From contig CAYMVY010000001.1 of assembly GCA_964394405.1 (NCBI GenBank), positions 233,219-297,218 of the forward strand: 64,000 bases of DNA, given 5' to 3'. Every line of letters begins with the position of its first letter. Within the stretch, counting starts at the first letter, position 1. The notes under the pieces are model-generated. The model was not told the origin of the DNA and did not search any database. It worked only from the letters and a program-made list of their open reading frames with translations. Of the stretch, positions 1,241 to 56,290 are shown piece by piece. The DNA comes from an uncultured Gammaproteobacteria bacterium. Its GTDB lineage: Bacteria > Patescibacteriota > Patescibacteriia > Magasanikbacterales > UBA922. Position numbers and translations under genes: made by a program.

Positions 1241-1253
1241 GAGAATCAAAAAA

Positions 1254-1285
1254 ACATCCCGACTCAGTCGGGGTGTTTTTGTTTT
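1254..1285 (+). terminator. intrinsic terminator after rpsR (ACATCCCGAC-TCAG-GTCGGGGTGT + T-run)
   Basis: 10-bp stem, 4-nt loop, TTTTTGTTTT tail read directly. Same core hairpin recurs at 32133 and 45009. Confidence 0.6.
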
Positions 1286-1867: not shown

Positions 1868-3640
1868 ATGAGAAGTCATCGCATACAAGCAGGATTTACC
1901 CTGATAGAATCGCTAATAGCGCTCGGTATTTTTGCGATTTTTGTAGTGGGTATTTACGGGAGCATACAGTTGAGTTTTTCATTGGTCTATCATTCACGTG
2001 TGCGAATTATTGGAACAGCTCTTCTGAATGAACAAATCGAGATTATACGCAACGCGCCATTTGATAGTGTGGGGATAATCAATGGGAGTCCTTCAGGAAT
2101 TTTTGAATATGTGACTACGACCAATAGAAATGGGATGATATTTGAAATCACACGAACCATTAGAAATGTGGATGATCCCTATGATGGAACAATCGGGGGA
2201 ACACCGGGGGACACTGCTCCGGCAGATTACAGATTTGTAGAAATTGAAGCAAGGTGTGTCTCCTGCGATCAGACCGAACCACTTGCAATGTACACCTATG
2301 TTGCACCAAAATACCTAGAAGGAAATCTGAATCATGGCGCACTATTTATACAGGTGATAGATGCATACGGCAATCCTGTTCCTGATGCACGAGTACACGT
2401 AGTTGCAACAAGCACCAACCCGACATATGATTTTTTTGACACTACTGACAATAGTGGTTATTTGAGAGTTTATGATCTTGCTACAGGAACAACGAAGTTT
2501 GTGATAGAGGCGACAAAAGAAGGGTATACTACAGCGACGACCTATTCCCCAAGTTCTACTAACCCAAATCCAACAACTCCGCATGTTACGATTATACAAC
2601 AGGCGGTAAGCAATCTTACATTGTCAATCGATCATATATCCACACTTGCAATTGAAACAAAAAATGCGCAATGCACAGCTGTACCCTCAGTTCCGGTGAC
2701 AATCAAAGGGACACGCCTCATTGGTCTGAATCCGAGTGTGTTTCTGGTGAATGAAGGTCGTATAACGAACAGTCTGGGTACCACAGGAGAAATGCAATTA
2801 CCCTGGGATAGCTATGGAATTACGGTTACAGGATATGATTTGATTGGTACGATTCCTGATGTGCTGATGCCCATATTGCCAGGATCGTCTCAGACGAGCC
2901 AATTGATTGTAGGGACAGATACCACTCGATCTCTCGTGGTTACTGTAGTAAATCAGGGTGCACCCATCGCAAGTGCTACAGTCACGGTCACTGGACCGAA
3001 TGGGTTTTCATCAGTCAAGACAACCGGAGTCGGGAGTATTTCTCAAACGGATTGGTCATCAGGACCAAATCATGAAACTTTTGGAGCAGGACAGGGGTAT
3101 AGTGAAGCGACTGGGGTCGATCCATACACTTCACCTGGAGACCTCACACTCGCACTCAATGGAAATTCATATGTATCAAGTGGGGTACTCGAATCCTCGA
3201 CCATTGATACAGGAGAAAACGCTCGGTATGTCGTCTGGTCGTGGAATCCGATGTCTGAGACACCATCAACAACGGTGCGTTTTCAAATTGCTACTAGTCC
3301 ATCGAGTACAGGACAAATATGGAATTTTGTAGGTCCGGATGGGACTGCAAACACCTATTTCAGTACTACTAGTACCAGTATTTCCAGTGTGCATGATGAT
3401 GAGCCGTATATGAGGTATCGGGTGTATCTAAGTACTATTGATCCGTCAGTCACACCAATAGTATCTGATCTGTCATTTGTATATACCAATGCGTGCACTC
3501 CGCCAGGACAAGTGTATATGGGGGGCTTAAGTCAAGGAGAATATACTATCCAAGTCCAAGCAGAAGGATTCCAGGCATATGAGCAAACAGTTGATGTCAC
3601 TGCTGACCACTTTATCACGACCGAGCTAACTGCCCTATGA
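1868..3640 (+). CDS. large type IV prepilin-like protein (prepilin-type N-terminal cleavage/methylation domain; Thr/Ser-rich)
   Basis: N-terminus MRSHRIQAGFTLIESLIALGIFAIFVVGIYG matches the G|FTLIE prepilin leader with Glu at +5 and a hydrophobic helix. 590 aa, Thr/Ser/Gly-rich body. Confidence 0.7.
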   Translation: MRSHRIQAGFTLIESLIALGIFAIFVVGIYGSIQLSFSLVYHSRVRIIGTALLNEQIEIIRNAPFDSVGIINGSPSGIFEYVTTTNRNGMIFEITRTIRNVDDPYDGTIGGTPGDTAPADYRFVEIEARCVSCDQTEPLAMYTYVAPKYLEGNLNHGALFIQVIDAYGNPVPDARVHVVATSTNPTYDFFDTTDNSGYLRVYDLATGTTKFVIEATKEGYTTATTYSPSSTNPNPTTPHVTIIQQAVSNLTLSIDHISTLAIETKNAQCTAVPSVPVTIKGTRLIGLNPSVFLVNEGRITNSLGTTGEMQLPWDSYGITVTGYDLIGTIPDVLMPILPGSSQTSQLIVGTDTTRSLVVTVVNQGAPIASATVTVTGPNGFSSVKTTGVGSISQTDWSSGPNHETFGAGQGYSEATGVDPYTSPGDLTLALNGNSYVSSGVLESSTIDTGENARYVVWSWNPMSETPSTTVRFQIATSPSSTGQIWNFVGPDGTANTYFSTTSTSISSVHDDEPYMRYRVYLSTIDPSVTPIVSDLSFVYTNACTPPGQVYMGGLSQGEYTIQVQAEGFQAYEQTVDVTADHFITTELTAL

Positions 3641-4365: not shown

Positions 4366-5730
4366 ATGAGTCACACAAAGCACCATAAGCAACCATATCG
4401 CGGAACAACACTCCTTATTGTGATGATCTTTGGAACCATCGCATTTGTCATAATGGTGCTTGGGGTTTTGGGGTACGCACTATTTGAACACAAAATTTCG
4501 ATGGAAATGTATCGAAGAGATGCTGCATTTCATATCGGAGAGGCAGGGATTAATTATTATCGCTGGCACCTAGCGCATAATACAACTGATTTTACTGATG
4601 GCACTGGATTGCCTGGGCCCTATACACATACAATGAGAGATAAGTTCAATACATCTGTGGGTAGCTACTCAATTACCATTTCCTCCCCACTGCCCAATTC
4701 TTCAGTCATTGAGGTTTCTTCAACAGGAACGATAATAACCTCACCGAACGCAAAGCGCGCCCTCAAGGTACGGCTCGGTTTCCCCTCATTCACAGACAGT
4801 GCATTTCTCATGAATGTAGATATGAGCTTCAGCTCAACAACACAGGTTCATGGCGAGGTATTATCGAATGGGGGCATCAAATTCGATGGCACGACTGACT
4901 CATGGGTGAGAAGTGCTCGTACTACCTACACGTATCAGGGGCAGTCCAAACCAGGGATATGGGGGAATGGTGGTCCGCAGTATTACTGGCAATTTCCAGT
5001 ACCTGCAGCTGATTTTGGATCAGTCACTGCTGATCTTGCTGCCCTAAAAACCATTTCACAACAGAGTGGCGGCAAATATTTGAGCTCTTCAGGAAGAGAG
5101 GGGTATCAGATCATTTTTAATAATACACAATATACAGTATATCGAGTGCGAACTCGCGACTGTTATGCAGGGAGCGGGGTGGATTATTGTTATGATATTG
5201 GTAGCAAGACCCTCATTGGGACATATACACTTCCCACCAATGGGGTAATGTTTATCGAAGACAATGCATGGCTCGAAGGAACTGTGGATGGTAGGGTTAC
5301 GATTGGGGTCGGAACATTTCCTGTACAAGGAACATATAAACAAGTGTATATTTCCAATAATCTGCTACAAAAACAAAAATCAAGTGATGATGTGATTGGA
5401 ATTATAGCGCAGGGCAGTATTATTATTCCCTATGAAGCCCCCAGTACTATGGAGGTAAATGCAGCAGCACTCTCACAATATGCACAAATCTATACACCAT
5501 ACTATAGTCCAAGTCAAAATCCAGGAGCGCTGAAAAATTCTCTTACCTTCTTTGGTTCTCAGATTTCGTATACAGGAGGCGGATGGAAATATATCAATGG
5601 ACAGGGGCAAGTAACTTCTGGATATTTATACACCAATCATGTATATGATGGAAATCTGAAGTACTACCCACCTCCAGGATTTCCGACAGGCTCTACGTAT
5701 GAATTGATTAGCTGGGAAGAGGTGCAATAA
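4366..5730 (+). CDS. pilus-associated protein with prepilin-like N-terminal helix (PilX-like, no Glu5)
   Basis: N-terminus PYRGTTLLIVMIFGTIAFVIMVLGVLGYA is a hydrophobic helix after RG. 454 aa. Third gene of the pilin-like trio. Confidence 0.4.
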   Translation: MSHTKHHKQPYRGTTLLIVMIFGTIAFVIMVLGVLGYALFEHKISMEMYRRDAAFHIGEAGINYYRWHLAHNTTDFTDGTGLPGPYTHTMRDKFNTSVGSYSITISSPLPNSSVIEVSSTGTIITSPNAKRALKVRLGFPSFTDSAFLMNVDMSFSSTTQVHGEVLSNGGIKFDGTTDSWVRSARTTYTYQGQSKPGIWGNGGPQYYWQFPVPAADFGSVTADLAALKTISQQSGGKYLSSSGREGYQIIFNNTQYTVYRVRTRDCYAGSGVDYCYDIGSKTLIGTYTLPTNGVMFIEDNAWLEGTVDGRVTIGVGTFPVQGTYKQVYISNNLLQKQKSSDDVIGIIAQGSIIIPYEAPSTMEVNAAALSQYAQIYTPYYSPSQNPGALKNSLTFFGSQISYTGGGWKYINGQGQVTSGYLYTNHVYDGNLKYYPPPGFPTGSTYELISWEEVQ

Positions 5731-10997: not shown

Positions 10998-11417
10998 GTG
11001 AGTAACATCAAAGCAAAATTATTAAAGCATCGAAATATCCTTTTGGGAATCGCGGCTTTAGTGAGCGTTTTTGCGTTATCTCCCGCACATGTAGCGTTTA
11101 CCCAAGCAGACGTTGATTTCGGTACTGATGTGGTAAAAGAGAATATTAATATCAGTACTACAGATGACGATGCTCGAGTAGTAGTCGTACGACTTATTAA
11201 TCTCGCGCTAACGTTTCTTGGATTAATCGCTGTAGTATTGATCCTCTGGGGAGGCTTCAAATGGATGACAGCTGGAGGAAATGACGAAAATGTAGAAGCA
11301 GCAAAAAAGATTATCATTGCAGCAGTAATCGGTCTTGCGATCATTATTTCTGCATACGCAATCGCAAACTTCTTTATCAATTCAATCCAGACTGCAGTTG
11401 GAGACGAGCCTATCTAG
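10998..11417 (+). CDS. TrbC/VirB2-like pilin paralog (P3)
   Basis: GTG start 6-8 nt after AGGGAGGTGA Shine-Dalgarno. Signal, then RVVVVRLINLALTFLGLIAVVLILWGGFKWMTAGGNDENVEAAKKIIIAAVIGLAIIISAYAIANFF. Confidence 0.65.
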   Translation: MSNIKAKLLKHRNILLGIAALVSVFALSPAHVAFTQADVDFGTDVVKENINISTTDDDARVVVVRLINLALTFLGLIAVVLILWGGFKWMTAGGNDENVEAAKKIIIAAVIGLAIIISAYAIANFFINSIQTAVGDEPI

Positions 11418-11938: not shown

Positions 11939-12697
11939 ATGAAAAAGTTTCTGTTCATTGTGGGGATTGCAATCGCATTTTCTATCTTTGCACTTGGCAC
12001 CGCAACATTTGCGCAAAATTTTGGTCTTGATGAGACAGCAGGGTCAGCAGGTCTCAAAGGATATGGGAACAGTGTGCCGACCATTGCAGGAAATATTATT
12101 GGAACCCTGCTTTCGATGATCTCGGTTCTCTTTTTTGTATTGGTTCTATATGGGGGAATTGTCTGGATGACGGCTCGGGGCAATTCTGAACTTACCACCA
12201 AAGCTATGGATACGATTATTGCAGCCGTAATTGGTATTATCATTATCATGGGAGCATACGCGCTTACCAACTTTGTATTCAAACTCGGTGGGACAAATAC
12301 AGGGGGAGGCAATGGTGGCGGAGGAAATACCGACAGTCCAACTCTCACCTGGTGCTTAACACCTGAAAATAACTGTATCCAAGGTGGGGGAAGTGCTTGT
12401 CCGGGAACATTGTATGCAACCGAAGCCATTTGTAATGCTGCAAAAGGAAGTTCGGCAGTATGTACAGCACGTGGGGAAACAATTTGTGGCAATTTTTTGA
12501 CCAGTGCCGAGTGTACGCAGTACAATGATAGCGCTCCATTTATGGGAGGAAACTATGGATGTCGATGGAATACTATCGGACCAAATGCACCTAATTGTGT
12601 TGTGTCACAGCAACAGATAGATCAATGTAAGGCTTTGTCTCCAGTACAATGTCAAAATGCAGGTTATGAAATGAGATGTCAATTAGGGGCAGAATGA
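11939..12697 (+). CDS. pilin paralog with extra C-terminal Gly/Cys-rich domain (P5)
   Basis: Start at MKKFLFIV. Pilin module LYGGIVWMTARGNSELTTKAMDTIIAAVIGIIIIMGAYAL is followed by GGGNGGGGN and a roughly 120-aa segment with 16 Cys. Confidence 0.6.
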   Translation: MKKFLFIVGIAIAFSIFALGTATFAQNFGLDETAGSAGLKGYGNSVPTIAGNIIGTLLSMISVLFFVLVLYGGIVWMTARGNSELTTKAMDTIIAAVIGIIIIMGAYALTNFVFKLGGTNTGGGNGGGGNTDSPTLTWCLTPENNCIQGGGSACPGTLYATEAICNAAKGSSAVCTARGETICGNFLTSAECTQYNDSAPFMGGNYGCRWNTIGPNAPNCVVSQQQIDQCKALSPVQCQNAGYEMRCQLGAE

Positions 12698-12736
12698 TAC
12701 AAAGTTTAAAATAATGAATAATAAAGTAAGGCACAC

Positions 12737-13129
12737 ATGCGCACTAAATCAAAAAATAAACTTATTTTTTTGCACGTCACCCTTGTTTCAATAGGATTGT
12801 TCGTAAACAAAGCAACAGTTCATGCAAAAAAAACTATTGATGATGCAGGGTCTGCTCTTGATTCAGTAGTAAATCCAACAGGACTACCCAAAGGTGAAGT
12901 GGCAACCTACGTCGGAAGCGTAGCACAGTGGATATTTGGCGCATTAGGACTCACATTTTTTGTACTAGCGACCTATGCCGGGATCACCTGGTTCATCGCT
13001 CGTGGAGAGGAAGAAAAAATTACCAAAGCAAAACAAACCCTGATAGCTGCAGTCATCGGTCTCATCATTGCAATAAGCGCGTATGCGATTTCAGTGTTTA
13101 TTACCAATACCTCAGGTTTTGGGGGATAA
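12737..13129 (+). CDS. pilin paralog (P6)
   Basis: Signal, then YAGITWFIARGEEEKITKAKQTLIAAVIGLIIAISAYAISVF. Confidence 0.65.
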   Translation: MRTKSKNKLIFLHVTLVSIGLFVNKATVHAKKTIDDAGSALDSVVNPTGLPKGEVATYVGSVAQWIFGALGLTFFVLATYAGITWFIARGEEEKITKAKQTLIAAVIGLIIAISAYAISVFITNTSGFGG

Positions 13130-13145
13130 TAACGAGCAAATACAT

Positions 13146-13535
13146 ATGAAAATTGTACAGGGAATAAAAAAACAACTACTGTGTGCATATCTTTTGGTGA
13201 TTAGTCTCAGTCTATTGCCGGGAGCAGTGCTTGGTCAGGGGAATTTGGGGGATGCAGGGGATAATCTAGCAAATGTACAGAAAGGTATTGGTGGAAATGT
13301 TCCAACAGATGTATCAGTAGTGGTTGGAAATATTATCAAAACCGTACTGAGTCTCGTGGGAATCATATTCCTCATTCTTACGGTCTATGCGGGCTATCTC
13401 TGGATGACTGCGCGAGGAGAAGATGAGCAGGTGAGCAAGGCAAAAGAAATTATCAAGTCATCGATCGCAGGCTTATTTGTGGTGGTAAGTTCATACGCGA
13501 TTACCGTGTTTATCACTTCTCGTTTTAGTAACTAA
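13146..13535 (+). CDS. pilin paralog (P7)
   Basis: Start at MKIVQGIKK, signal, then VYAGYLWMTARGEDEQVSKAKEIIKSSIAGLFVVVSSYAITVF. Confidence 0.65.
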   Translation: MKIVQGIKKQLLCAYLLVISLSLLPGAVLGQGNLGDAGDNLANVQKGIGGNVPTDVSVVVGNIIKTVLSLVGIIFLILTVYAGYLWMTARGEDEQVSKAKEIIKSSIAGLFVVVSSYAITVFITSRFSN

Positions 13536-13541
13536 TTTTTT

Positions 13542-13955
13542 ATGAATTCTGGATCACTCATGAGAAAAGTAGGGGTAATGCTCGGGGTAGCCACACTGGG
13601 GTTGCTTGTAACCACTGCACACGCCCAAAATCTTGGAATCGATGCAGTACACAAAGCAGGCACAGAAGCCGGATTTGAGCGCGCGACAGAAACCAGTTTT
13701 TCAGAAAATGTAGGCCGAGCGATTACGATTCTTTTCTCAATATTGGGTGTACTCTTCACTATTCTCATTGTCTATGCAGGCTATCTCTGGATGACTGCGC
13801 GAGGAAATGATGAGTTTGTGACTAAGGCAAAAAACATACTCTCTACGTCAATTATTGGTCTCATCATCTTACTCATGGCCTATAGCATTACCCGCTTTGT
13901 AGTGCCTCGACTGCTTCAGGGTTCGGTGAATGTCCCTGTTGAAGAACAGCAATAG
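13542..13955 (+). CDS. pilin paralog (P8)
   Basis: VYAGYLWMTARGNDEFVTKAKNILSTSIIGLIILLMAYSITRF. Confidence 0.65.
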   Translation: MNSGSLMRKVGVMLGVATLGLLVTTAHAQNLGIDAVHKAGTEAGFERATETSFSENVGRAITILFSILGVLFTILIVYAGYLWMTARGNDEFVTKAKNILSTSIIGLIILLMAYSITRFVVPRLLQGSVNVPVEEQQ

Positions 13956-30723: not shown

Positions 30724-30735
30724 ATTGAAAAAATA

Positions 30736-30768
30736 CAAAAAAGAGTGGTTTTCTTCCACTCTTTTTTG
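30736..30768 (+). terminator. intrinsic terminator AAGAGTGG-ttttctt-CCACTCTT + T-run
   Basis: Hairpin plus TTTTTTG after the CBS gene. Confidence 0.55.
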
Positions 30769-30885
30769 TATTTAATGGCTGTATTGACACAAAAATAATG
30801 ATATGATATGTTGTGCGACCGTCTTACAGAGAGATCTGTGAGAAGCGGTGAGAAAGGCAAGGGCAACCAATCGTGGAGGACAGAC

Positions 30886-31848
30886 ATGGCTCTGACAATC
30901 AGTTTTAGCGGAATCGAGGGGAGGAAGCAATTCGATGAAACGCAGAATCGAGCGCTCCTGTTCCGCATCTTCGAAGAAGCAGGGTTCTCTGGCGAGTTCG
31001 AGATGCGTCTGCATCGGCAGGTCTCGGCGAGCGGCGGCGGGCATCATCAGGGACTTCAAGGGGTGCAGTTCAACCAGAAGGGTGATCGCACTCTCAAGGT
31101 CTGCGTTCAAGTCGGGGACAGTAGTACCCGGCATGAGCTGCACCTGCCGGTCTCGAGGGAGAAGCTCCAGGAGATGATCCGGAGGCTCAAGGGAGCTCAG
31201 GGGCGTCTCGTCGAGCGCGAGAAGGCAGTGGTGTCGCGTACGAACGGGAAGTCGCGGGAAAGCGTGCTCGATCCGAAGGCTCCAGTGAATGGGACCAAGC
31301 AGAAGCATGATGAAGAAGCTACACTCACGACTATGGGTCAACCTGTGGCTGTGATGGACGAACTGTCGGCGGATGAGCTCAACATGTGTCGCCACATCGT
31401 CGAGGAGGAGGGTGCGAAGATCGAGGAGATCGATCAGAGGCTCAGGGAGACGGAAGATCAGATCTCCAGTCATGAGCATGAGCACATGCGACTCATCCAT
31501 GACCTCAGGGAATCTGCTCTGACAGCAGAAGATCTCGAGCACGAGATTCTCCGACTCGAAGAGAAGCTCAACTCCGCGAAGGAGAAGCTTCTCAGGGTGC
31601 GCGGGAATCAGATCGAGATGGAGCTCGCGGACGCAGAGCATGTCTCTGCGCTCGAAGAACTGCGACGACTGGTCTCTGACCTCAATCAGAAGAGGTCCAA
31701 GGCAGAGGCGAACCGTACCAACGCGGCTGAGGAGGTGTCCAAGGCAGAGGCGCGGGCCGAAGCAGGCCTCCGGGCGCTGCTGCGGATGCTCAGTCCGGAC
31801 CGTCTGGTCCGGATCGTCGCCACACTGGGCGATGGGGCATCCAAGTAG
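30886..31848 (+). CDS. GC-rich coiled-coil protein (compositional outlier, possible horizontally acquired gene)
   Basis: GGAGGA Shine-Dalgarno 6 nt before ATG 30886. 321-aa charged helical protein. Region is visibly GC-rich relative to its neighbours. The antisense ORF 30772-31902 has junk-like L/R-rich composition. Confidence 0.55.
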   Translation: MALTISFSGIEGRKQFDETQNRALLFRIFEEAGFSGEFEMRLHRQVSASGGGHHQGLQGVQFNQKGDRTLKVCVQVGDSSTRHELHLPVSREKLQEMIRRLKGAQGRLVEREKAVVSRTNGKSRESVLDPKAPVNGTKQKHDEEATLTTMGQPVAVMDELSADELNMCRHIVEEEGAKIEEIDQRLRETEDQISSHEHEHMRLIHDLRESALTAEDLEHEILRLEEKLNSAKEKLLRVRGNQIEMELADAEHVSALEELRRLVSDLNQKRSKAEANRTNAAEEVSKAEARAEAGLRALLRMLSPDRLVRIVATLGDGASK

Positions 31849-31938
31849 TGGAGAGGGATTTGGACGGGGGGTGGCACGCGCTGCCTCCCGTCCAAAAAGC
31901 ATACCAATATATTGGTATTTTTTATTTTTAGAACTATT

Positions 31939-31967
31939 TTGACTTTTTGGTTAGATACTTGTATATT
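31939..31967 (+). promoter_or_regulatory. promoter TTGACT-17-TATATT for the ileS leader
   Basis: Read directly. Confidence 0.45.
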
Positions 31968-31974
31968 TAGAACA

Positions 31975-32185
31975 CAATTGTATCAGCGTATTTTCTGCAA
32001 TCAACAGAAATTCTCTATATGAGAAGCGCTAGAGGAAGAAATCCGCGAATAGTGGAAAGTAGAACCTCTCGGGTATGCCCGTAATAGCTGCAAATAAGTG
32101 CTACCAATCGTAGAAGCAGGATGGTACCGTCCCGACTCAGTCGGGATTCCTGCAGATAGGGTAGCTTTTTGTTTTTTTAGTCTCC
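31975..32185 (+). promoter_or_regulatory. candidate T-box-like leader/attenuator upstream of ileS
   Basis: AGGATGGTACCGTC (32118-32131) resembles the T-box AGGGTGGNACCGCG. Nested terminator GCAGGA..CCCGAC-TCAG-GTCGGG..TCCTGC, then CTTTTTGTTTTTTT. About 280-nt leader before ileS ATG 32255. Confidence 0.35.
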
Positions 32186-44984: not shown

Positions 44985-45004
44985 AGTAAATTAATGTCTT
45001 ACAC

Positions 45005-45036
45005 AAAAACATCCCGACTCAATCGGGATGTTTTTG
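45005..45036 (+). terminator. intrinsic terminator ACATCCCGA-ctcaa-TCGGGATGT + T-run after ftsH
   Basis: Perfect 9-bp stem. Same family as 1254-1285. Confidence 0.6.
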
Positions 45037-45043
45037 TGTATCT

Positions 45044-46224: not shown

Positions 46225-47964
46225 ATGTCTGATTTCCCTTCAATTAATGACCTCACCCAGAATTCTTCAGGAGTCAGCCCACGAAATATATCAGAAGCCG
46301 GAGAAAAACAAACGAAAACTTTGGGCAAGAAGATGGGGGAGATCAAAGAAAAAGAGCTCGAAATAAAAGCAGCTCGTTTTGCTGCGAGTATTGGGGTACC
46401 ACATATTGATCTGTCCAAATTTCCGGTCACCAATGAAGCTCTAAAGCAGATAACCCGGGAAGAAGTTGAAACCTACGGGGTAGTGTGTTTTTTTGCTAAT
46501 TCAGATGAAGTAAGAATTGGTGCTCTTGATCCCACAAAACCAGATGTTGAGCGAATACTAAAAACAGTCGAAGCGCGAAAGCATGCAACAGGTGCGGTAT
46601 ATGTGATTTCTGAAGTGAGTCTGAAACATATGCTTGAACTCTACGACAAACTTCCCACCATAAAACCCCTAACCAAAGATGTCGAGATAACGGCTGAAAA
46701 TTTGTCACAAGTTCAGGCATCAGTAAACGATTTTAAATCTGTGGCTCAGCTACTCTCACAGGCGACCACGACTGACATGCTTACCGTAATACTCGGAGCT
46801 GCACTCAAGGTCAATGCATCAGATGTACACATTGAAGCAGAACAGGAAAAAATAATAGTAAGATATCGACTCGACGGAATTTTGCACGATGTGTCAGATA
46901 TCTCAAAAGAGGCATACCATAAATTATTATCACGTATAAAATTGTTTTCCTCGCTTAAGATAAATATTACCTCAAAACCACAAGATGGCCGGTTTACCAT
47001 TAAGGGTCCTAGTGGAGATATTGATGTGCGTGTTTCCACAATCCCCACAGTGTTTGGAGAGAGTGTAGTAATGCGTCTCCTAATTCAAGGAACGCAGGGA
47101 ATTAGTCTAGAGGAGCTTGGGTTTAGTGCGGATACACTTGCAGTCTTGAAAGAACAAATCAAGCGTCCTACAGGTATGATTATTACGACTGGTCCGACCG
47201 GATCGGGTAAGTCGACTACACTCTATGCAATACTCCAGATTATCAATGAGCCAGGGGTAAAAATTATAACTCTCGAAGATCCTGTAGAATATCGAGTCGA
47301 AGGAATTAATCAAAGTCAGGTAGATCATAGCAAAGGGTACACATTTGCCTCAGGACTCCGCTCAATTCTTCGCCAAGATCCGGATATTGTAATGGTGGGA
47401 GAAATTCGTGATGAAGAAACAGCTGAAATTGCCGTCCAGGCAGCACTCACGGGTCACCTCATGCTTTCAACACTTCATACCAATTCTGCAGCAGGTTCGA
47501 TCTCTCGTCTATTATCCATGGGGGTCGCTCCGTACCTACTATCCCCGGCGCTTAATTGTGTTATGGGTCAGCGTCTTGTGCGTCGAGTGTGCCCCACGTG
47601 TAGAACAAAGGTAACTATTGATGAATTGGATGAGTCGCTCCGCGAGCGTGTACGAGCAGTGATTGGACAGATGAATACAGAAGATGTGGAGCGAGCTCAG
47701 GGTGGGGATCAAACATTCTTTATTGCTTCTCTCGAAGGGTGCAGTGAGTGCAATGGGATTGGATACAAAGGGAGAGTCGGAATTTGTGAAATGTTTATTG
47801 TGCATGAGGAGATCAAACAATTAATTCTTGCAGGCTCAGTCGGCGAGGGAGATATTGAGAAGATCGCGCGTCAGCGCGGTATGCGGACGATGGTCGAGGA
47901 TGGAGTCCTGAAAGCGATTGAGGGAGTTACCACACTTGAAGAAGTATTTAGAGTAATTGAGTAA
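46225..47964 (+). CDS. pilB: type IV pilus / type II secretion assembly ATPase (PilB/GspE family)
   Basis: N-terminal GSPII_E_N-like region, Walker A TGPTGSGKSTT, Asp and His boxes, C-terminal tetracysteine CPTC...CSEC. Confidence 0.85.
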   Translation: MSDFPSINDLTQNSSGVSPRNISEAGEKQTKTLGKKMGEIKEKELEIKAARFAASIGVPHIDLSKFPVTNEALKQITREEVETYGVVCFFANSDEVRIGALDPTKPDVERILKTVEARKHATGAVYVISEVSLKHMLELYDKLPTIKPLTKDVEITAENLSQVQASVNDFKSVAQLLSQATTTDMLTVILGAALKVNASDVHIEAEQEKIIVRYRLDGILHDVSDISKEAYHKLLSRIKLFSSLKINITSKPQDGRFTIKGPSGDIDVRVSTIPTVFGESVVMRLLIQGTQGISLEELGFSADTLAVLKEQIKRPTGMIITTGPTGSGKSTTLYAILQIINEPGVKIITLEDPVEYRVEGINQSQVDHSKGYTFASGLRSILRQDPDIVMVGEIRDEETAEIAVQAALTGHLMLSTLHTNSAAGSISRLLSMGVAPYLLSPALNCVMGQRLVRRVCPTCRTKVTIDELDESLRERVRAVIGQMNTEDVERAQGGDQTFFIASLEGCSECNGIGYKGRVGICEMFIVHEEIKQLILAGSVGEGDIEKIARQRGMRTMVEDGVLKAIEGVTTLEEVFRVIE

Positions 47965-51219: not shown

Positions 51220-51236
51220 TAAGACATTTAGAGAAT

Positions 51237-51270
51237 AATAAACAGCCTATCTCTAGGCTGTTTATTATTA
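51237..51270. terminator. bidirectional terminator AACAGCCTA-tctc-TAGGCTGTT between thrS and the convergent transporter
   Basis: Perfect 9-bp stem with AT-rich flanks. Confidence 0.55.
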
Positions 51271-51285
51271 GTAAGATTGTTTGTT

Positions 51286-52245
51286 TTATCCTCGCATCAC
51301 CAGATACCCTACATATCCGACATAGATAAGTACAAACATAAGTCCTTGCCAGCGGTTGAGACGATGCTTGGTGCCAATAAACATAAAGAAGAAGAGAAGA
51401 AGTGTTGCGCCAATATTCACAAGGACATCGATTTGCCCTGCAGGTGATATAGGAAGAGGTAGGATAGATGAGGTGAGTCCAAGTATCCAGAGAATATTGA
51501 AAATATTTGATCCCACGATATTTCCGACTGCGAGATCATCTTGTCCGTGACGAACTGCAATAATTGAGGTTACGAGCTCGGGCAACGAAGTGCCTACTGC
51601 TACAATCGTGAGACCGATAAGTGCCTCGGACATGCCTGCTAATTGCGCAAGTACAATCGCATTGTCGACCAATAATTTTCCACCAAGCACTAGACCAGTG
51701 AGCCCTCCTAAAATAAGGAGAATGGAGATAGGTGTGGAATACAGTTTTACCTCGTCTTTATCTGCATCACCACTCACTTTTGCAATACCGAATGTGTAAT
51801 ACAGGAAGATTGCAAAAATCCCCATGAGCGCAAAACCATCGGTGCGGGTAAGTGCATTGGCGATACCTCCATCGAGAATGCGGTCATGCGACATAGCAAA
51901 TACAAGTAGTACTGCAAGGAGTGCTAATGGAATTTCTTTCCATACGGTATTTTTCTGTACCCGTATAGTGCGTATCATGGCACAGATTCCAAGAATGAGA
52001 AGAATGTTCGCGATATTGCTTCCGATAACGTTTCCAATCGCAATATCAGTCGAGCCTTTGAATGCTGAGAAGAGATTCACCGCAAGCTCGGGGGCAGAAG
52101 TACCAAAGGCAACAATCGTGAGCCCTATGACAATGGGAGCAACTTTGAGACGTTTGGCAATAGACGACGCTCCTCGAACGAGTGATTCACCACCAACAAT
52201 GAGAATACCGAGGCCGACAAGTACGAGAAAAATAGAGAGAATCAT
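51286..52245 (-). CDS. Na+/Ca2+ exchanger family (CaCA/YrbG-like) membrane protein
   Basis: Two alpha-repeat motifs GNVIGSNIANILLILG and GNIVGSNIFNILWILG. 10 TM. Confidence 0.75.
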   Translation of the reverse strand: MILSIFLVLVGLGILIVGGESLVRGASSIAKRLKVAPIVIGLTIVAFGTSAPELAVNLFSAFKGSTDIAIGNVIGSNIANILLILGICAMIRTIRVQKNTVWKEIPLALLAVLLVFAMSHDRILDGGIANALTRTDGFALMGIFAIFLYYTFGIAKVSGDADKDEVKLYSTPISILLILGGLTGLVLGGKLLVDNAIVLAQLAGMSEALIGLTIVAVGTSLPELVTSIIAVRHGQDDLAVGNIVGSNIFNILWILGLTSSILPLPISPAGQIDVLVNIGATLLLFFFMFIGTKHRLNRWQGLMFVLIYVGYVGYLVMRG

Positions 52246-52307
52246 ACCATGTATGTATTAGAATATTGCACTAGTATAGAGATAAAATTGATTTTTTACA
52301 AGATAGT

Positions 52308-52351
52308 GGTTAGAACAAAAAACCATGCTTCATCAGCATGGTTTTTTGTTT
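52308..52351. repeat. direct repeat 1 (hairpin-containing) flanking the GC-rich cassette
   Basis: GGTTAGAACAAAAAACCATGCTtcatcAGCATGGTTTTTTGTTT. 22+13 nt identical to 53069-53114. Confidence 0.7.
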
Positions 52352-52423
52352 GTTCGTAGGGTTGACAAAATGGATATTTTGTAGTAGCGTGCGTCTAACG
52401 CATGGGACTATAAGGAGGTATAT

Positions 52424-52939
52424 ATGCGTACGTCTGTTCAGAAACGAACGATCGCTCTCTCAATCGCTACGACTGTCGCGGTGATGATGGGGGTGCTCTT
52501 GGGCAACTTCATCCTGTGGAGTCTGGTCGCTAAAGGCGACCCGAAGTACCTGTTGCGCGATTCGTTCAATCCGATTCTCGCACTGGGCTTCTTCTCCTGC
52601 GGAATGTTCTTCTTCGACCGAGTGATCGGCAAGGGGAATCCTACGCGTTCAGCACTTGGTGCGCTGTGTGCCATCATACTGATGGGGATCTGGCTGACCG
52701 TCACTATGCAGGTAGTGTCACATGAGCTGAACGAAGTGGTCGGGGCAGTCGCTATGATCACTGGGCTGTTCACGGTGGTCAACTTCGCCTTCGTGTACTA
52801 CCTCGGGAAAATATACGGGGAAGAATATCGGCGACAGGTCAAGGATCAGCAGGACGAGCGCGTGCGACGAGCGAAGCTCCAGAAAGAGGGGGCTAAGCCG
52901 CAGTCATCGGCCATGATCTTCGAGGATGGTCGCGGCTGA
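52424..52939 (+). CDS. GC-rich 4-TM membrane protein (compositional outlier)
   Basis: AGGAGG Shine-Dalgarno 6 nt upstream. 171 aa. Coding DNA visibly GC-rich versus its flanks. Bracketed by direct repeats. Confidence 0.55.
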   Translation: MRTSVQKRTIALSIATTVAVMMGVLLGNFILWSLVAKGDPKYLLRDSFNPILALGFFSCGMFFFDRVIGKGNPTRSALGALCAIILMGIWLTVTMQVVSHELNEVVGAVAMITGLFTVVNFAFVYYLGKIYGEEYRRQVKDQQDERVRRAKLQKEGAKPQSSAMIFEDGRG

Positions 52940-53068
52940 CATTTGGACGAGCTTAATGTCTAGAAAAATGTAGCTCGGAACCAGAAGCAGAATTCGCCGG
53001 CGGAAGTCGGTAGTGCGCCCCACACTCAAAAAGGGGCATGCTAAACATGTTTGTAAATTTTGCAAATA

Positions 53069-53114
53069 GGTTAGAACAAAAAACCATGCTGATGAAGAAT
53101 GGTTTTTTGTTTAT
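53069..53114. repeat. direct repeat 2 flanking the GC-rich cassette
   Basis: GGTTAGAACAAAAAACCATGCTgatgaagaATGGTTTTTTGTTT. Its loop is the reverse complement of the repeat-1 loop. Confidence 0.7.
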
Positions 53115-53122
53115 ACAAATTT

Positions 53123-54442
53123 TTATGCAAGGCTAAGCACACACAACCCCTCAATATGTGGTGTTCGTGGAAAGAAATTGTAGAGTCGAGAAAAAGAAAT
53201 ATTGTAGGTAGGATGAAGAAGCGAAATATCTCGTGCTTGAGTAGAAAGATCACATGACAAATAAATAATAGTCTTTGGTTTTGCTTCAAGAATTTTTTCC
53301 ACTACCCGATGATGGAGTCCTACACGAGGCGGGTCGAGAATGACGATCGAGTCTGGTGTGATGAGTGAGAGAATATCTTCAGTTGGTTTGCAGATTGCTG
53401 TCGCATTTTTTATCTTATTCAATTCAATATTCTCTGTCGCATATTGAATTGCTTCAGTATTATTATCCACGAGCGTTAATTCTTTTGCACGTGCGTGAAC
53501 TGGTAGTCCGATTGACCCGACTCCAGAATAGAGATCGAGTAGATTAGATTTTTTTGGAATATATTCGTAGATGTCATCAAGAGCACGCTCAAACACTGGC
53601 AAATGTACTTGGAAAAAACTAAGCAGACCAACTTTGAATTCAATATCTCGGAGTGTGATGATAATATAGTCCTGTCCCTTGGTATAGAGCGTATCAGTAG
53701 GGACAGAAGCAGGGGATTTGTGGGTAGAGTAGTAGAGTTGGAACCCAATCATCTGGTCATTGAGTTCTGGATAATCCGGAAATTTCAATCGGTCTTTGAT
53801 AAATAATGCAGCAATAGTTTTTCCATTGCCATCACTCCGGACCATGAGACTCTTCAGGCTTCGCATAGGAATCTGGTGCTTCCTGACCCAGGCAAGAATG
53901 TATGCAGAAGTTTCATTGATTGCACTGTCCGCAAGCTCAGAGCCTTCTACGGCAAATCGGACTTTCTTGCCACGCTCAAAAAACCCAAGACACGTGCGTC
54001 CAGTCTTATCGACAGCAAAACTAAATTCCATCTTGTTTCGATAGCTGTAATATTTTTCTGGATCAAATACGAGTTCTGGAGAAATGTCGGCAAAAGCTTC
54101 TTTGCCAATACGTTTGTATACTTCAATCGCGATCTCTTTTTTCCATTCATTTTCTTTTTCATAGCTCATGATCTGCCACGGACTAGTCGAGAGAAAATGC
54201 GCGTCTTTTGGCTCCACTCGAAAGGGAGAAGGGGTGATGATTTTGGTCGCAACTGCTTCGATATATTCTTTCTTCTTTTTCAATATTTCAATTTCAACCG
54301 TCTCACCAGGAAGTGCATTCCAGACAAAATAGACCTTGCTTGCCGGCCGTACCCCGAGCGGAGTCGAGGGGGAAGGCTGGCCGTCTACTCGAGCAAATCC
54401 TTGTCCGCCGAAGATGAGTTTTTCAATCGTAATTTGTTGCAT
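53123..54442 (-). CDS. SAM-dependent RNA (uracil-C5)-methyltransferase, TrmA/RlmD family with N-terminal TRAM domain
   Basis: TRAM-like N-terminus (KLIFGGQGFARVDG), SAM-binding LLDLYSGVGSIG, catalytic DPPRVGLH. Confidence 0.7.
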   Translation of the reverse strand: MQQITIEKLIFGGQGFARVDGQPSPSTPLGVRPASKVYFVWNALPGETVEIEILKKKKEYIEAVATKIITPSPFRVEPKDAHFLSTSPWQIMSYEKENEWKKEIAIEVYKRIGKEAFADISPELVFDPEKYYSYRNKMEFSFAVDKTGRTCLGFFERGKKVRFAVEGSELADSAINETSAYILAWVRKHQIPMRSLKSLMVRSDGNGKTIAALFIKDRLKFPDYPELNDQMIGFQLYYSTHKSPASVPTDTLYTKGQDYIIITLRDIEFKVGLLSFFQVHLPVFERALDDIYEYIPKKSNLLDLYSGVGSIGLPVHARAKELTLVDNNTEAIQYATENIELNKIKNATAICKPTEDILSLITPDSIVILDPPRVGLHHRVVEKILEAKPKTIIYLSCDLSTQARDISLLHPTYNISFSRLYNFFPRTPHIEGLCVLSLA

Positions 54443-55941: not shown

Positions 55942-56011
55942 CAGCGTCAGAGGGCGTATATACAAGAGAGCCCGGTCACTCGAGAAGGAGGCCGGGCTTT
56001 TTGGTGCAGTG

Positions 56012-56287
56012 TCACCAGTGGTGGTGTTTGCGGGATGGGGCGATGAGAAAAGAGGCGATGAGACATCCAAATCCCACGAAGAAGGTATGGTCGGTCTCGG
56101 TGTTCGTCCGCAGTTCGTTCGCGCTGTCTTGGTCAATGGCAGTCGCAATGATCACGATCCCAGCGATGAGAAGCAAGACTGCCAGCACGGTAGCAAGAGT
56201 GGGGAGTTTTGACACTGAAAACATGCAGAATCCCTCCAACATAAAGGTCTGTAGAAGTTTATACCGCACTGCCACTACCATTGTCAA
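56012..56287 (-). CDS. candidate small 2-TM protein in a GC-elevated patch
   Basis: Hydrophobic 70-91-aa ORF (LPTLATVLAVLLLIAGIVIIATAI...FFVGFGCLIASFLIA). Overlaps a junk-looking plus-strand ORF. Confidence 0.3.
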   Translation of the reverse strand: MTMVVAVRYKLLQTFMLEGFCMFSVSKLPTLATVLAVLLLIAGIVIIATAIDQDSANELRTNTETDHTFFVGFGCLIASFLIAPSRKHHHW

Positions 56288-56290
56288 TGA

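Follow-up and report, generated by a model that had tools for sequence, protein, structure and literature searches.

The 64,000-nucleotide stretch of contig CAYMVY010000001.1 analyzed here (hereafter the window), from the chromosome of an uncultured member of the Magasanikbacteria, contains a GC-rich gene, orf171, bracketed by two copies of a hairpin repeat. This unit lies between a resident Na/Ca exchanger gene on the left (51286–52245, minus strand; Pfam Na_Ca_ex, 1.2e-65) and a resident RNA methyltransferase gene on the right (53123–54442, minus strand), which is assigned by Pfam to the TRAM and uracil-5 RNA methyltransferase families and is syntenic in nine relatives. Both neighbors are on the strand opposite to orf171, as a preliminary description of the locus made from the sequence alone had stated, and together with the genes for threonyl-tRNA synthetase (ThrRS), Nth, VIT and MutY-like proteins they form an arrangement that is syntenic in related genomes. 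Based on the composition of orf171, its signals and the same locus in the relatives, we put forward a mechanism in which a foreign single-gene unit was captured at a resident terminator that was duplicated in the process.

The gene itself (52424–52939, plus strand) is the only one between the repeats and encodes an orphan protein of 171 residues with four transmembrane (TM) helices and a charged C-terminal tail. The gene and four-TM protein of the preliminary description are borne out by four hydrophobic segments in the hydropathy profile (residues 8–38, 51–69, 75–100, and 104–127) and by four helices in a single-sequence AlphaFold model, which is of low confidence (pLDDT 64). By the positive-inside rule, the most likely topology would place both termini inside (N-in/C-in) with a charged cytoplasmic helix following TM4. 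The Shine-Dalgarno (SD) site AAGGAGG, read from the sequence at 52412–52418 on the plus strand, is 5 nt upstream of the ATG, and the putative promoter (52362–52390, plus strand) consists of a perfect −35 box, TTGACA at 52362–52367, a 17-nt spacer and a weak −10 element, TAGCGT at 52385–52390; the strong ribosome-binding site and the TTGACA box reported earlier are thus both in place. The promoter scan did not call this TTGACA box because the best −10 element at 17-nt spacing, TAGCGT, matches at 3/6 positions. The 3′ untranslated part of the insert (52940–53068, plus strand) shows moderate structure (−41 kcal/mol, z −3.4), gives no match in Rfam and lacks a terminator of its own. A weak or chance match is the sequence ATTTGGACG, shared just past the stop codons of orf171 and a second GC-rich gene in the window, orf320.

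The two repeat copies span 44 nt each, at 52308–52351 (copy 1) and 53069–53112 (copy 2), and are 86% identical as direct repeats in the repeat search. The length and the position of copy 1 agree with the preliminary description, while the end of copy 2, which had been placed at 53114, moves to 53112. Within each copy is a 37-nt hairpin (52314–52350 and 53075–53111), the two hairpins being 97% complementary to one another, and to the left of both is the 6-nt sequence GGTTAG in direct orientation. The 5-nt loops, TCATC in copy 1 and GATGA in copy 2, are mutually reverse-complementary, so the earlier account of direct flanks and opposed loops stands, with the correction that the copies also differ by one stem base: AGCATGG has become AGAATGG in copy 2, which creates a G.A mismatch in a stem that in copy 1 is a perfect 16 bp. 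Gapped local alignment gives a weak stretch-out of the direct repeat to 52294–52351 and 53058–53112, and this candidate extension of the duplication (52294–52307, TTTTACAAGATAGT, versus TTTTGCAAATA at 53058–53068), which is not significant alone, would reach into the −35 box of the exchanger promoter. That resident promoter (52273–52301, minus strand; TTGTAA, 17 nt, TATACT) was called by the promoter scan, and copy 1 lies between it and the divergent promoter of orf171. Copy 2 is located about 10 nt past the methyltransferase stop codon, in the ancestral terminator position, and now faces the convergent orf171 and methyltransferase genes.

Each stem is preceded by an A-tract and followed by a T-tract (A6/T6), giving the shape of a bidirectional intrinsic terminator. 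Folding energies on the two strands are −22.2 and −22.0 kcal/mol for copy 1 and −17.8 and −13.9 kcal/mol for copy 2, and the z-scores lie between −5 and −7.5 throughout. We read the hairpin as a terminator because of its 16-bp stem with A/T tracts, its −22 kcal/mol on both strands and its position at gene ends, and in its sequence it has what characterizes an intrinsic bidirectional terminator, namely a stable stem, a U-tract on both strands and a location at the end of a gene. A simple consensus terminator scan of the window called neither copy because the U-tract pairs with the A-tract within the extended stem. The hairpin is found directly 3′ of the methyltransferase stop in eight relatives and 3′ of the exchanger stop in five, and by its sequence and position we take the repeat not to be foreign but to be the bidirectional terminator that the methyltransferase gene already had, of which the insertion produced a second copy. 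The 16-mer stem arm occurs within the 64 kb at the two repeat sites only (10 matches with three or fewer mismatches, against 1.4 expected), and the other terminator-like hairpins of the window differ from it in sequence. With Rfam in gathering mode the whole window yields two tRNAs only, and the matches to OrzO-P, rliE and Thr leader that appear on the cassette in E-value mode are sub-threshold and produced by the terminator hairpin, and were rejected. We also rejected a transposon, as terminal inverted repeats are lacking from the insert, and a version in which the hairpins act as 37-nt inverted repeats leaves the outside duplications unmatched, GGTTAG on the left versus TATACA on the right.

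In its composition orf171 is set apart from its surroundings. Its GC content is 0.558 and its GC at third codon positions (GC3) is 0.709, compared with 0.419 (sd 0.023, maximum 0.490) and 0.363 (sd 0.037, maximum 0.450), respectively, for the 57 native genes of the window, which corresponds to z-scores of +6.0 and +9.3 and is outside the variance of the native genes. Outside orf171, stretches of 516 nt with a GC content of at least 0.558 are found only in the GC-rich gene at about 30.8–31.9 kb. In orf171 GC3 exceeds GC1, which exceeds GC2, which is the pattern of a genuine coding frame shaped by evolution in a background richer in GC. Two other genes of the window, encoding proteins of 320 (30886–31848) and 70 residues (56012–56224), have the same GC-rich signature. 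The relative synonymous codon usage (RSCU) of orf171 correlates with that of other GC-rich cassette genes (r 0.41–0.59) and is effectively uncorrelated with host genes (r −0.06 to 0.23), so that the GC and codon-usage deviation proposed in the preliminary description is upheld. More generally, r is 0.41–0.63 among the GC-rich genes, including those of relatives (the short 70-residue gene excepted), −0.27 to 0.36 between GC-rich and host genes, and 0.43–0.76 among host genes. The translation signal follows the same division. When the 20 nt ahead of the start codon (−20 to −4) were inspected for GGAGG or AGGAG in all 60 window genes, a strong SD site was present in 3/3 GC-rich genes and 0/57 native genes (Fisher p = 2.9e-5), and it appears that the host initiates translation largely without SD sites and that the cassettes supply strong ones. 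The window contains no 16S rRNA gene from which an anti-SD sequence might be read. Hence, orf171 is marked as foreign in three independent ways, by GC content, codon usage and SD site.

The site can be compared directly with that in related genomes. A search with the methyltransferase protein found nine of them, at 80–92% identity, and those with correct labels belong to Candidatus Magasanikbacteria, a lineage of the Candidate Phyla Radiation (CPR); they are cited below by handles such as L003 where they must be told apart. Several of the L004 to L010 records, which have 80–90% protein identity and synteny with the locus, are titled ‘uncultured Gammaproteobacteria bacterium’, and these labels look wrong. 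In all nine relatives (9/9, the most distant included) orf171 is absent and the surrounding synteny is kept. The empty site with a single repeat copy that the preliminary description had anticipated is present in four, L003, L006, L007 and L009, in which a single hairpin stands about 10 nt past the methyltransferase stop and is succeeded by the promoter (TTGTAA, 17 nt, TATACT) and then the gene of the exchanger, with no gene between methyltransferase and exchanger. The exchanger promoter is conserved after the single hairpin in L003, L004, L006, L007 and L009 and is the ancestral right-hand border of the insertion site. Outside the repeats, the sequence next to copy 2 corresponds to the methyltransferase side of the empty site and that next to copy 1 to its exchanger side; therefore, the insertion doubled the hairpin together with at least 6 nt and separated the two copies by about 717 nt. 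The seven genomes that have no cassette here carry the loop in the orientation of copy 1, which makes copy 2 the flipped one. A metagenome scan with the methyltransferase gave one distant locus only, and exact-protein look-ups of both neighbors returned the same contig of the Logan assembly only, so that no conspecific strain without the cassette was found in them.

Two readings would remove the need for an insertion. In one, the common ancestor already had orf171 and both terminators, and recombination between the hairpins removed the gene from the relatives; deletion from hairpin to hairpin removes the exchanger unit in L002, L005 and L008 (see below), and secondary empty sites are therefore conceivable. 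We consider it very improbable, given that composition, codon usage and SD signal are all foreign, that the databases searched hold no homologue, and that absence from nine of nine relatives, where the preliminary description had pointed to a gene shared with relatives as the outcome that would speak for ancestry, calls for many independent losses. In the other, the assembler has joined a fragment of a GC-richer organism via a short repeat, and here the metagenomic source and the length of the bracketing repeats, which is near assembler k-mer sizes, give some cause for concern. Nevertheless, an independent Logan assembly (SRR12404947) reproduces the window without a difference over 10,561 nt that span both junctions, which argues against a chimera; moreover, a foreign fragment would need the AT-rich hairpin of the host at both of its ends, and an analogous cassette is found at the site in two independent assemblies, 97.5% identical and from different samples. 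A chimera is thus exceedingly improbable.

The source of orf171 is another matter. A word-indexed search of 5.8 billion clusters returned only orf171 itself, as did a full phmmer search against 1.84 billion representative proteins; a scan of the viral contigs of IMG/VR found no relatives, and no family was assigned from Pfam, PHROGs, PADLOC or NCBIfam. A match to DUF1275 (E = 0.0096, 16 bits versus a cutoff of 25) was dismissed. With no homologue, no donor can be named, and at 56% GC the gene is only moderately high in GC, which bears on the idea of a high-GC donor raised in the preliminary description.

The hairpin is not restricted to the methyltransferase gene. In L003, L004, L006, L007 and L009 a second copy, with the same stem including a G.U wobble, directly follows the exchanger stop (11289–11326 and 12368–12406 in L003; 11039–11069 and 12111–12147 in L009), so that in five relatives the native exchanger unit is bracketed by hairpins just as orf171 is in the window, where the 3′ terminator of the exchanger is a different hairpin (51233–51270). 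The loop variant GACGA is private to L003 and present in both of its hairpins, suggesting that the copies have exchanged sequence. In L002, L005 and L008 the exchanger is absent and one hybrid hairpin is kept. The left flank of this hairpin in L002 and L008 is the methyltransferase end and its right flank is of the H2 type, corresponding to that of the second hairpin in L004 and L009 (84% identity), as is to be expected after recombination between two copies or, read inversely, after a hairpin-duplicating insertion. Whichever the direction, units bracketed by the hairpin come and go precisely in this lineage, and the same manner of excision should be open to the orf171 unit.

A different cassette occupies the same site in L004 and in L021, an independent JGI contig of a second metagenome that is 97.5% identical to it. 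Here an insert of about 950 nt is positioned between the methyltransferase stop and the hairpin and contains a gene for a 217-residue protein (GC 0.535, GC3 0.63) that is preceded by AAGGAGAG, is oriented as orf171 is and has TTGACAAAA 15 nt after the hairpin; the cassette also has its own GC-rich terminator, and searches with the protein gave no homologue but itself. With a different GC-rich, SD-led orphan at the same position, the site qualifies as a hotspot for cassettes of this kind. There is a single hairpin in L004 and L021, with its loop flipped relative to the seven cassette-free genomes, and duplication is therefore not obligatory for insertion there. A 9-nt match, TGACGAAGC, near the methyltransferase stop of L004 might be left over from a second hairpin copy (probability of a chance match about 0.05, by rough estimate).

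Such recurrence raises the question of whether the palindrome is itself a recombination site, similar to the attC site of integrons or to the targets of REP (repetitive extragenic palindromic) or IS200-type systems, in which case circles carrying one hairpin would integrate and excise by means of a dedicated enzyme or of RecA acting on 40–60 nt of homology. That two different orphan cassettes lie beside the hairpin at one site in the same orientation would fit with this, as would the precise presence or absence of the hairpin-bracketed exchanger unit among relatives, the exchange between copies suggested by the private GACGA loop in both hairpins of L003, and a Y1 transposase gene resembling a REP-associated tyrosine transposase (RAYT) in the same variable region of L007 and L008. 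The integron attC site is an imperfect palindrome with conserved R and L boxes (RYYYAAC/GTTRRRY) and extrahelical bases. The orf171 unit shares with integron cassettes a single gene with a palindromic hairpin site and the presence of alternative cassettes at one site, but the stem of copy 1 pairs perfectly over 16 bp, without bulges, and has A/T tracts, the RYYYAAC/GTTRRRY boxes were unmatched by manual reading, no tyrosine recombinase is found among the 29 genes scanned (28–64 kb), there is a single cassette and no array, and, unlike integron cassettes, the units in the window and in L004 and L021 carry their own promoter-like box and SD site. The resemblance to the REP/RAYT system lies in the extragenic palindromic hairpins at gene ends and in the RAYT-like gene in the variable region of two relatives. 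However, the 64 kb contains two hairpin copies, both at this site, and the relatives have two per locus, which is not a dispersed family; there is no Y1 gene in the window, and the Y1 genes of L007 and L008 are not flanked by the hairpin, so that REP/RAYT was rejected on its low copy number and on the lack of a Y1 gene in the window.

Further difficulties for a hairpin-specific site are the absence of any recombinase among the 29 window genes scanned, the perfect stem, which has none of the bulges of attC, and the L004 and L021 cassette with its one hairpin only. A circle could use homology to integrate only when the hairpin and flank of this locus were already part of it, and such a model therefore cannot explain the first capture. 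We regard it as unlikely. A still bolder version would be a recombinase-free, integron-like cassette system in CPR bacteria, in which palindromic terminators would be the specific and recurrent points of entry for GC-rich, SD-led orphans from an unsampled pool. Capture would then depend on the palindrome, through breakage of a cruciform or hairpin or through recombination of single-stranded hairpins, and would duplicate the terminator while keeping the cassettes excisable; we offer this as speculation and would not ourselves expect it to hold.

The explanation that we favor, to which we assign a probability of roughly 0.72, is that the orf171 unit is a moron-like, self-contained transcription unit that was acquired horizontally and captured illegitimately at a palindromic terminator that was duplicated. 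The inserted foreign cassette of the preliminary description is supported by composition, empty sites and absence from relatives, and these comparisons show that a foreign unit entered the site and that the resident terminator was doubled around it; the manner of its capture we infer. In the ancestor, the methyltransferase gene and the exchanger promoter were separated by a short spacer with one palindromic bidirectional intrinsic terminator. The acquired single-gene unit corresponds to about 52352–53068 and comprises the −35 box, the strong SD site and the GC-rich open reading frame (ORF) of the four-TM orphan, and its insertion duplicated the terminator and at least 6 nt of the exchanger-side flank, 44 to about 58 nt in total. 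We propose that capture occurred by break-and-fill-in or by illegitimate recombination at a fragile palindrome. In a first route, a staggered break at the base of the extruded hairpin and subsequent fill-in would give a target duplication a few bases longer than the palindrome. In a second, homology-facilitated illegitimate recombination would follow the uptake of DNA, with the hairpin-promoter-exchanger side as the anchor and the other side joined illegitimately; the two copies would then be derived from two strains, which would also account for their differences. A PilB-type ATPase is encoded in the window (46225–47964) and would be compatible with a pilus-based DNA uptake system. The cassette has no mobility gene, and a Pfam scan of 29 genes from 28 to 64 kb, which are housekeeping genes, revealed neither an integrase nor a transposase.

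The inverted loop of copy 2 bears on one more possibility, that an extruded cruciform was resolved into two hairpin-capped ends which were opened off-center and filled in, leaving a full palindrome on each side of the captured fragment. Manual strand-tracing of this scheme predicts exactly what is seen, one copy with an inverted loop, and the methyltransferase-side border of the duplication does coincide with the base of the stem; the surviving hairpin of L004 and L021 is also flipped relative to the seven cassette-free genomes. However, the scheme cannot yield the direct 6-nt GGTTAG flank, a 6-mer with a chance of about 1/4096, or the weaker extension beyond it, and loop inversion by template switching offers a simpler and independent explanation, which leaves cruciform resolution decidedly unlikely. 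Minute hairpin inversions by template switching in palindromes are established, and under illegitimate capture with terminator duplication we propose that the loop of one copy was inverted later by an intrastrand template switch in the perfect palindrome, as would also have happened in the single hairpin of L004 and L021. The two direct copies would now permit the precise loss of the orf171 unit by recombination.

Once in place, orf171 would be transcribed from its own −35/−10 elements, translated by means of its strong SD site and terminated at copy 2, which, like the ancestral hairpin before it, would also end transcription of the convergent methyltransferase gene. Copy 1 would shield the exchanger promoter, and would shield the orf171 promoter from antisense transcription, with read-through blocked in either direction, and the exchanger would therefore retain its ancestral insulation. 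In the proposed scheme both copies still act as terminators or insulators, which would be why they are near intact while the weaker flank similarity has decayed. Thus, ‘insulated by terminators’, the wording of the preliminary description, seems a fair functional description of the unit.

Several points weigh against this explanation. The −10 element of orf171 is weak, the consensus scans called neither its promoter nor the terminators, and expression is a prediction from sequence signals. There is no donor or homologue, and transfer is argued from composition and distribution only. The leader of the insert (GC 0.417) and the 3′ untranslated region (0.450) are host-like, so that a clearly foreign composition is confined to the ORF. 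A target duplication of 44–58 nt far exceeds the usual scars of transposition, and the mechanism put forward for it is hypothetical; plain duplication, moreover, leaves the inverted loop unexplained and makes a second event necessary. Finally, precise excision between hairpin copies means that the empty sites of the relatives could in principle be secondary.

Among known systems, one of the closest parallels is to the phage moron, characterized in PMC3594210 as an extra gene of deviant GC content with its own transcription signals that is absent from the same position in relatives. Like such a moron (for example, HK97 gene 15), orf171 is absent at the same position in nine relatives, with an exact empty site in four, and has a composition unlike that of the surrounding genes. 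As to the moron’s own promoter and terminator, it has a perfect −35 box with a weak, uncalled −10 element and, as a terminator, the duplicated hairpin of the host; and, unlike a moron, it is located in the chromosome among syntenic housekeeping genes and not in a phage or prophage, with no PHROG match and no relative in viral contigs. Movement by transformation and homologous recombination in the flanking genes, with no scar, defines another known kind, the minimal mobile elements of Neisseria (Saunders & Snyder 2002, as cited in PMC1538595). The likeness is that one site between conserved genes holds orf171, the 217-residue gene (L004 and L021) or nothing (L003, L006, L007, and L009) and that the cassette has no mobility gene; the difference is the 44–58-nt target duplication that brackets orf171, which plain recombination in the flanks would not make. 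The orf171 unit is neither an integron cassette nor a REP/RAYT element, and belongs to the broad and known class of horizontally acquired, strain-specific gene islets.

As to what orf171 does, the product of HK97 gene 15, gp15, is a small inner-membrane protein that acts in superinfection exclusion, and for this reason our guess is that orf171 might have an accessory function in the envelope, such as the exclusion of phage or foreign DNA.

The event described here is a clear but fairly ordinary horizontal gene gain and reveals no new molecular machine. What has been added to the preliminary description is the empty site, the identity of the repeat as a terminator of the host, the contrast in SD sites, a second cassette, and a hairpin-bracketed exchanger unit that has been lost recurrently. 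It provides an unusually clean before-and-after comparison, with a known empty site and a known scar, a duplicated terminator with one loop flipped. Taken with the other two GC-rich genes of the window and the second cassette, that of a sister species, it also shows that a streamlined CPR genome gains and loses single orphan genes at terminators, that palindromic terminators can be both landing sites and substrates for deletion, and that these organisms are fed by a gene pool invisible to 15 billion database proteins. The resulting model, in which insulated single-gene units enter small genomes without disturbing their neighbors, is testable.

The second GC-rich cassette of the window (30724–31936) contains orf320 (30886–31848, plus strand; GC 0.59, GC3 0.71), which encodes a coiled-coil-like orphan of 320 residues. 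It has a GGAGG site, a TTGACA box and its own GC-rich terminator, and is located between a CBS-domain gene and the leader of the isoleucyl-tRNA synthetase (IleRS) gene. In four relatives (L015, L017, L018, and L019) the CBS stop is directly followed by the IleRS promoter, and the orf320 cassette is therefore also an insertion. At its start is an AT-rich terminator hairpin (30730–30774) that is absent in the relatives, and after it 12 nt (GGCTGTA|TTGAC, 30777–30788) repeat part of the ancestral junction.

The third GC-rich, SD-led gene (56012–56224, minus strand, within 55942–56290) lies between the MutY-like and VIT genes, has a TTGACA box and a GC-rich terminator, and encodes a 70-residue protein with two TM segments. 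It has orthologues in L002 (8289–8498), L003 (8310–8522) and L004 (8180–8392), which are 40–68% identical, compared with 83–94% for the neighboring genes, and are still GC-rich (GC3 0.61–0.72). A different small GC-rich gene is found at this position in L006 and L010 and none in L008 and L009. The 70-residue protein looks like a fast-evolving or repeatedly replaced surface protein.

The region between the exchanger/TrmB genes and ThrRS is variable among the relatives. The Y1 (IS200-like/REP-associated tyrosine) transposase genes are found there in two of them, at 4401–4991 of L007 and 7051–7638 of L008 (both minus strand), with scores of 31 bits for Pfam Y1_Tnp and 63.9 bits for NCBIfam REP_Tyr_transpos, the latter under the cutoff of 80. 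A weak tblastn match of the Y1 protein within orf320 (E = 0.001 in a tiny database) was treated as noise. In L003 a GC-rich radical-SAM/B12-binding gene (12488–13888, minus strand; GC 0.514) is present between exchanger and ThrRS and is accompanied by an SH3-domain cysteine-rich protein and a small ORF, forming another strain-specific island at a terminator. One relative only, L017, has between rpiB and rpe a gene (3014–3385, minus strand) of the bAvd/23S-rRNA-IVP family, an accessory protein of diversity-generating retroelements.

The leader of the IleRS gene (31953–32154, plus strand) is T-box-like, with 23.8 bits versus a gathering threshold of 93 bits (E = 0.002), and has a GGTACCG region that is conserved in the relatives; it is probably a divergent CPR T-box. 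Another hairpin core, TCCCGACTCAGTCGGGA, occurs three times in the window (1250–1280, 44999–45041, and 32130–32160), twice in terminator-like hairpins and once inside the IleRS leader, and its recurrence suggests that hairpin sequences are being copied or are converging in this genome.

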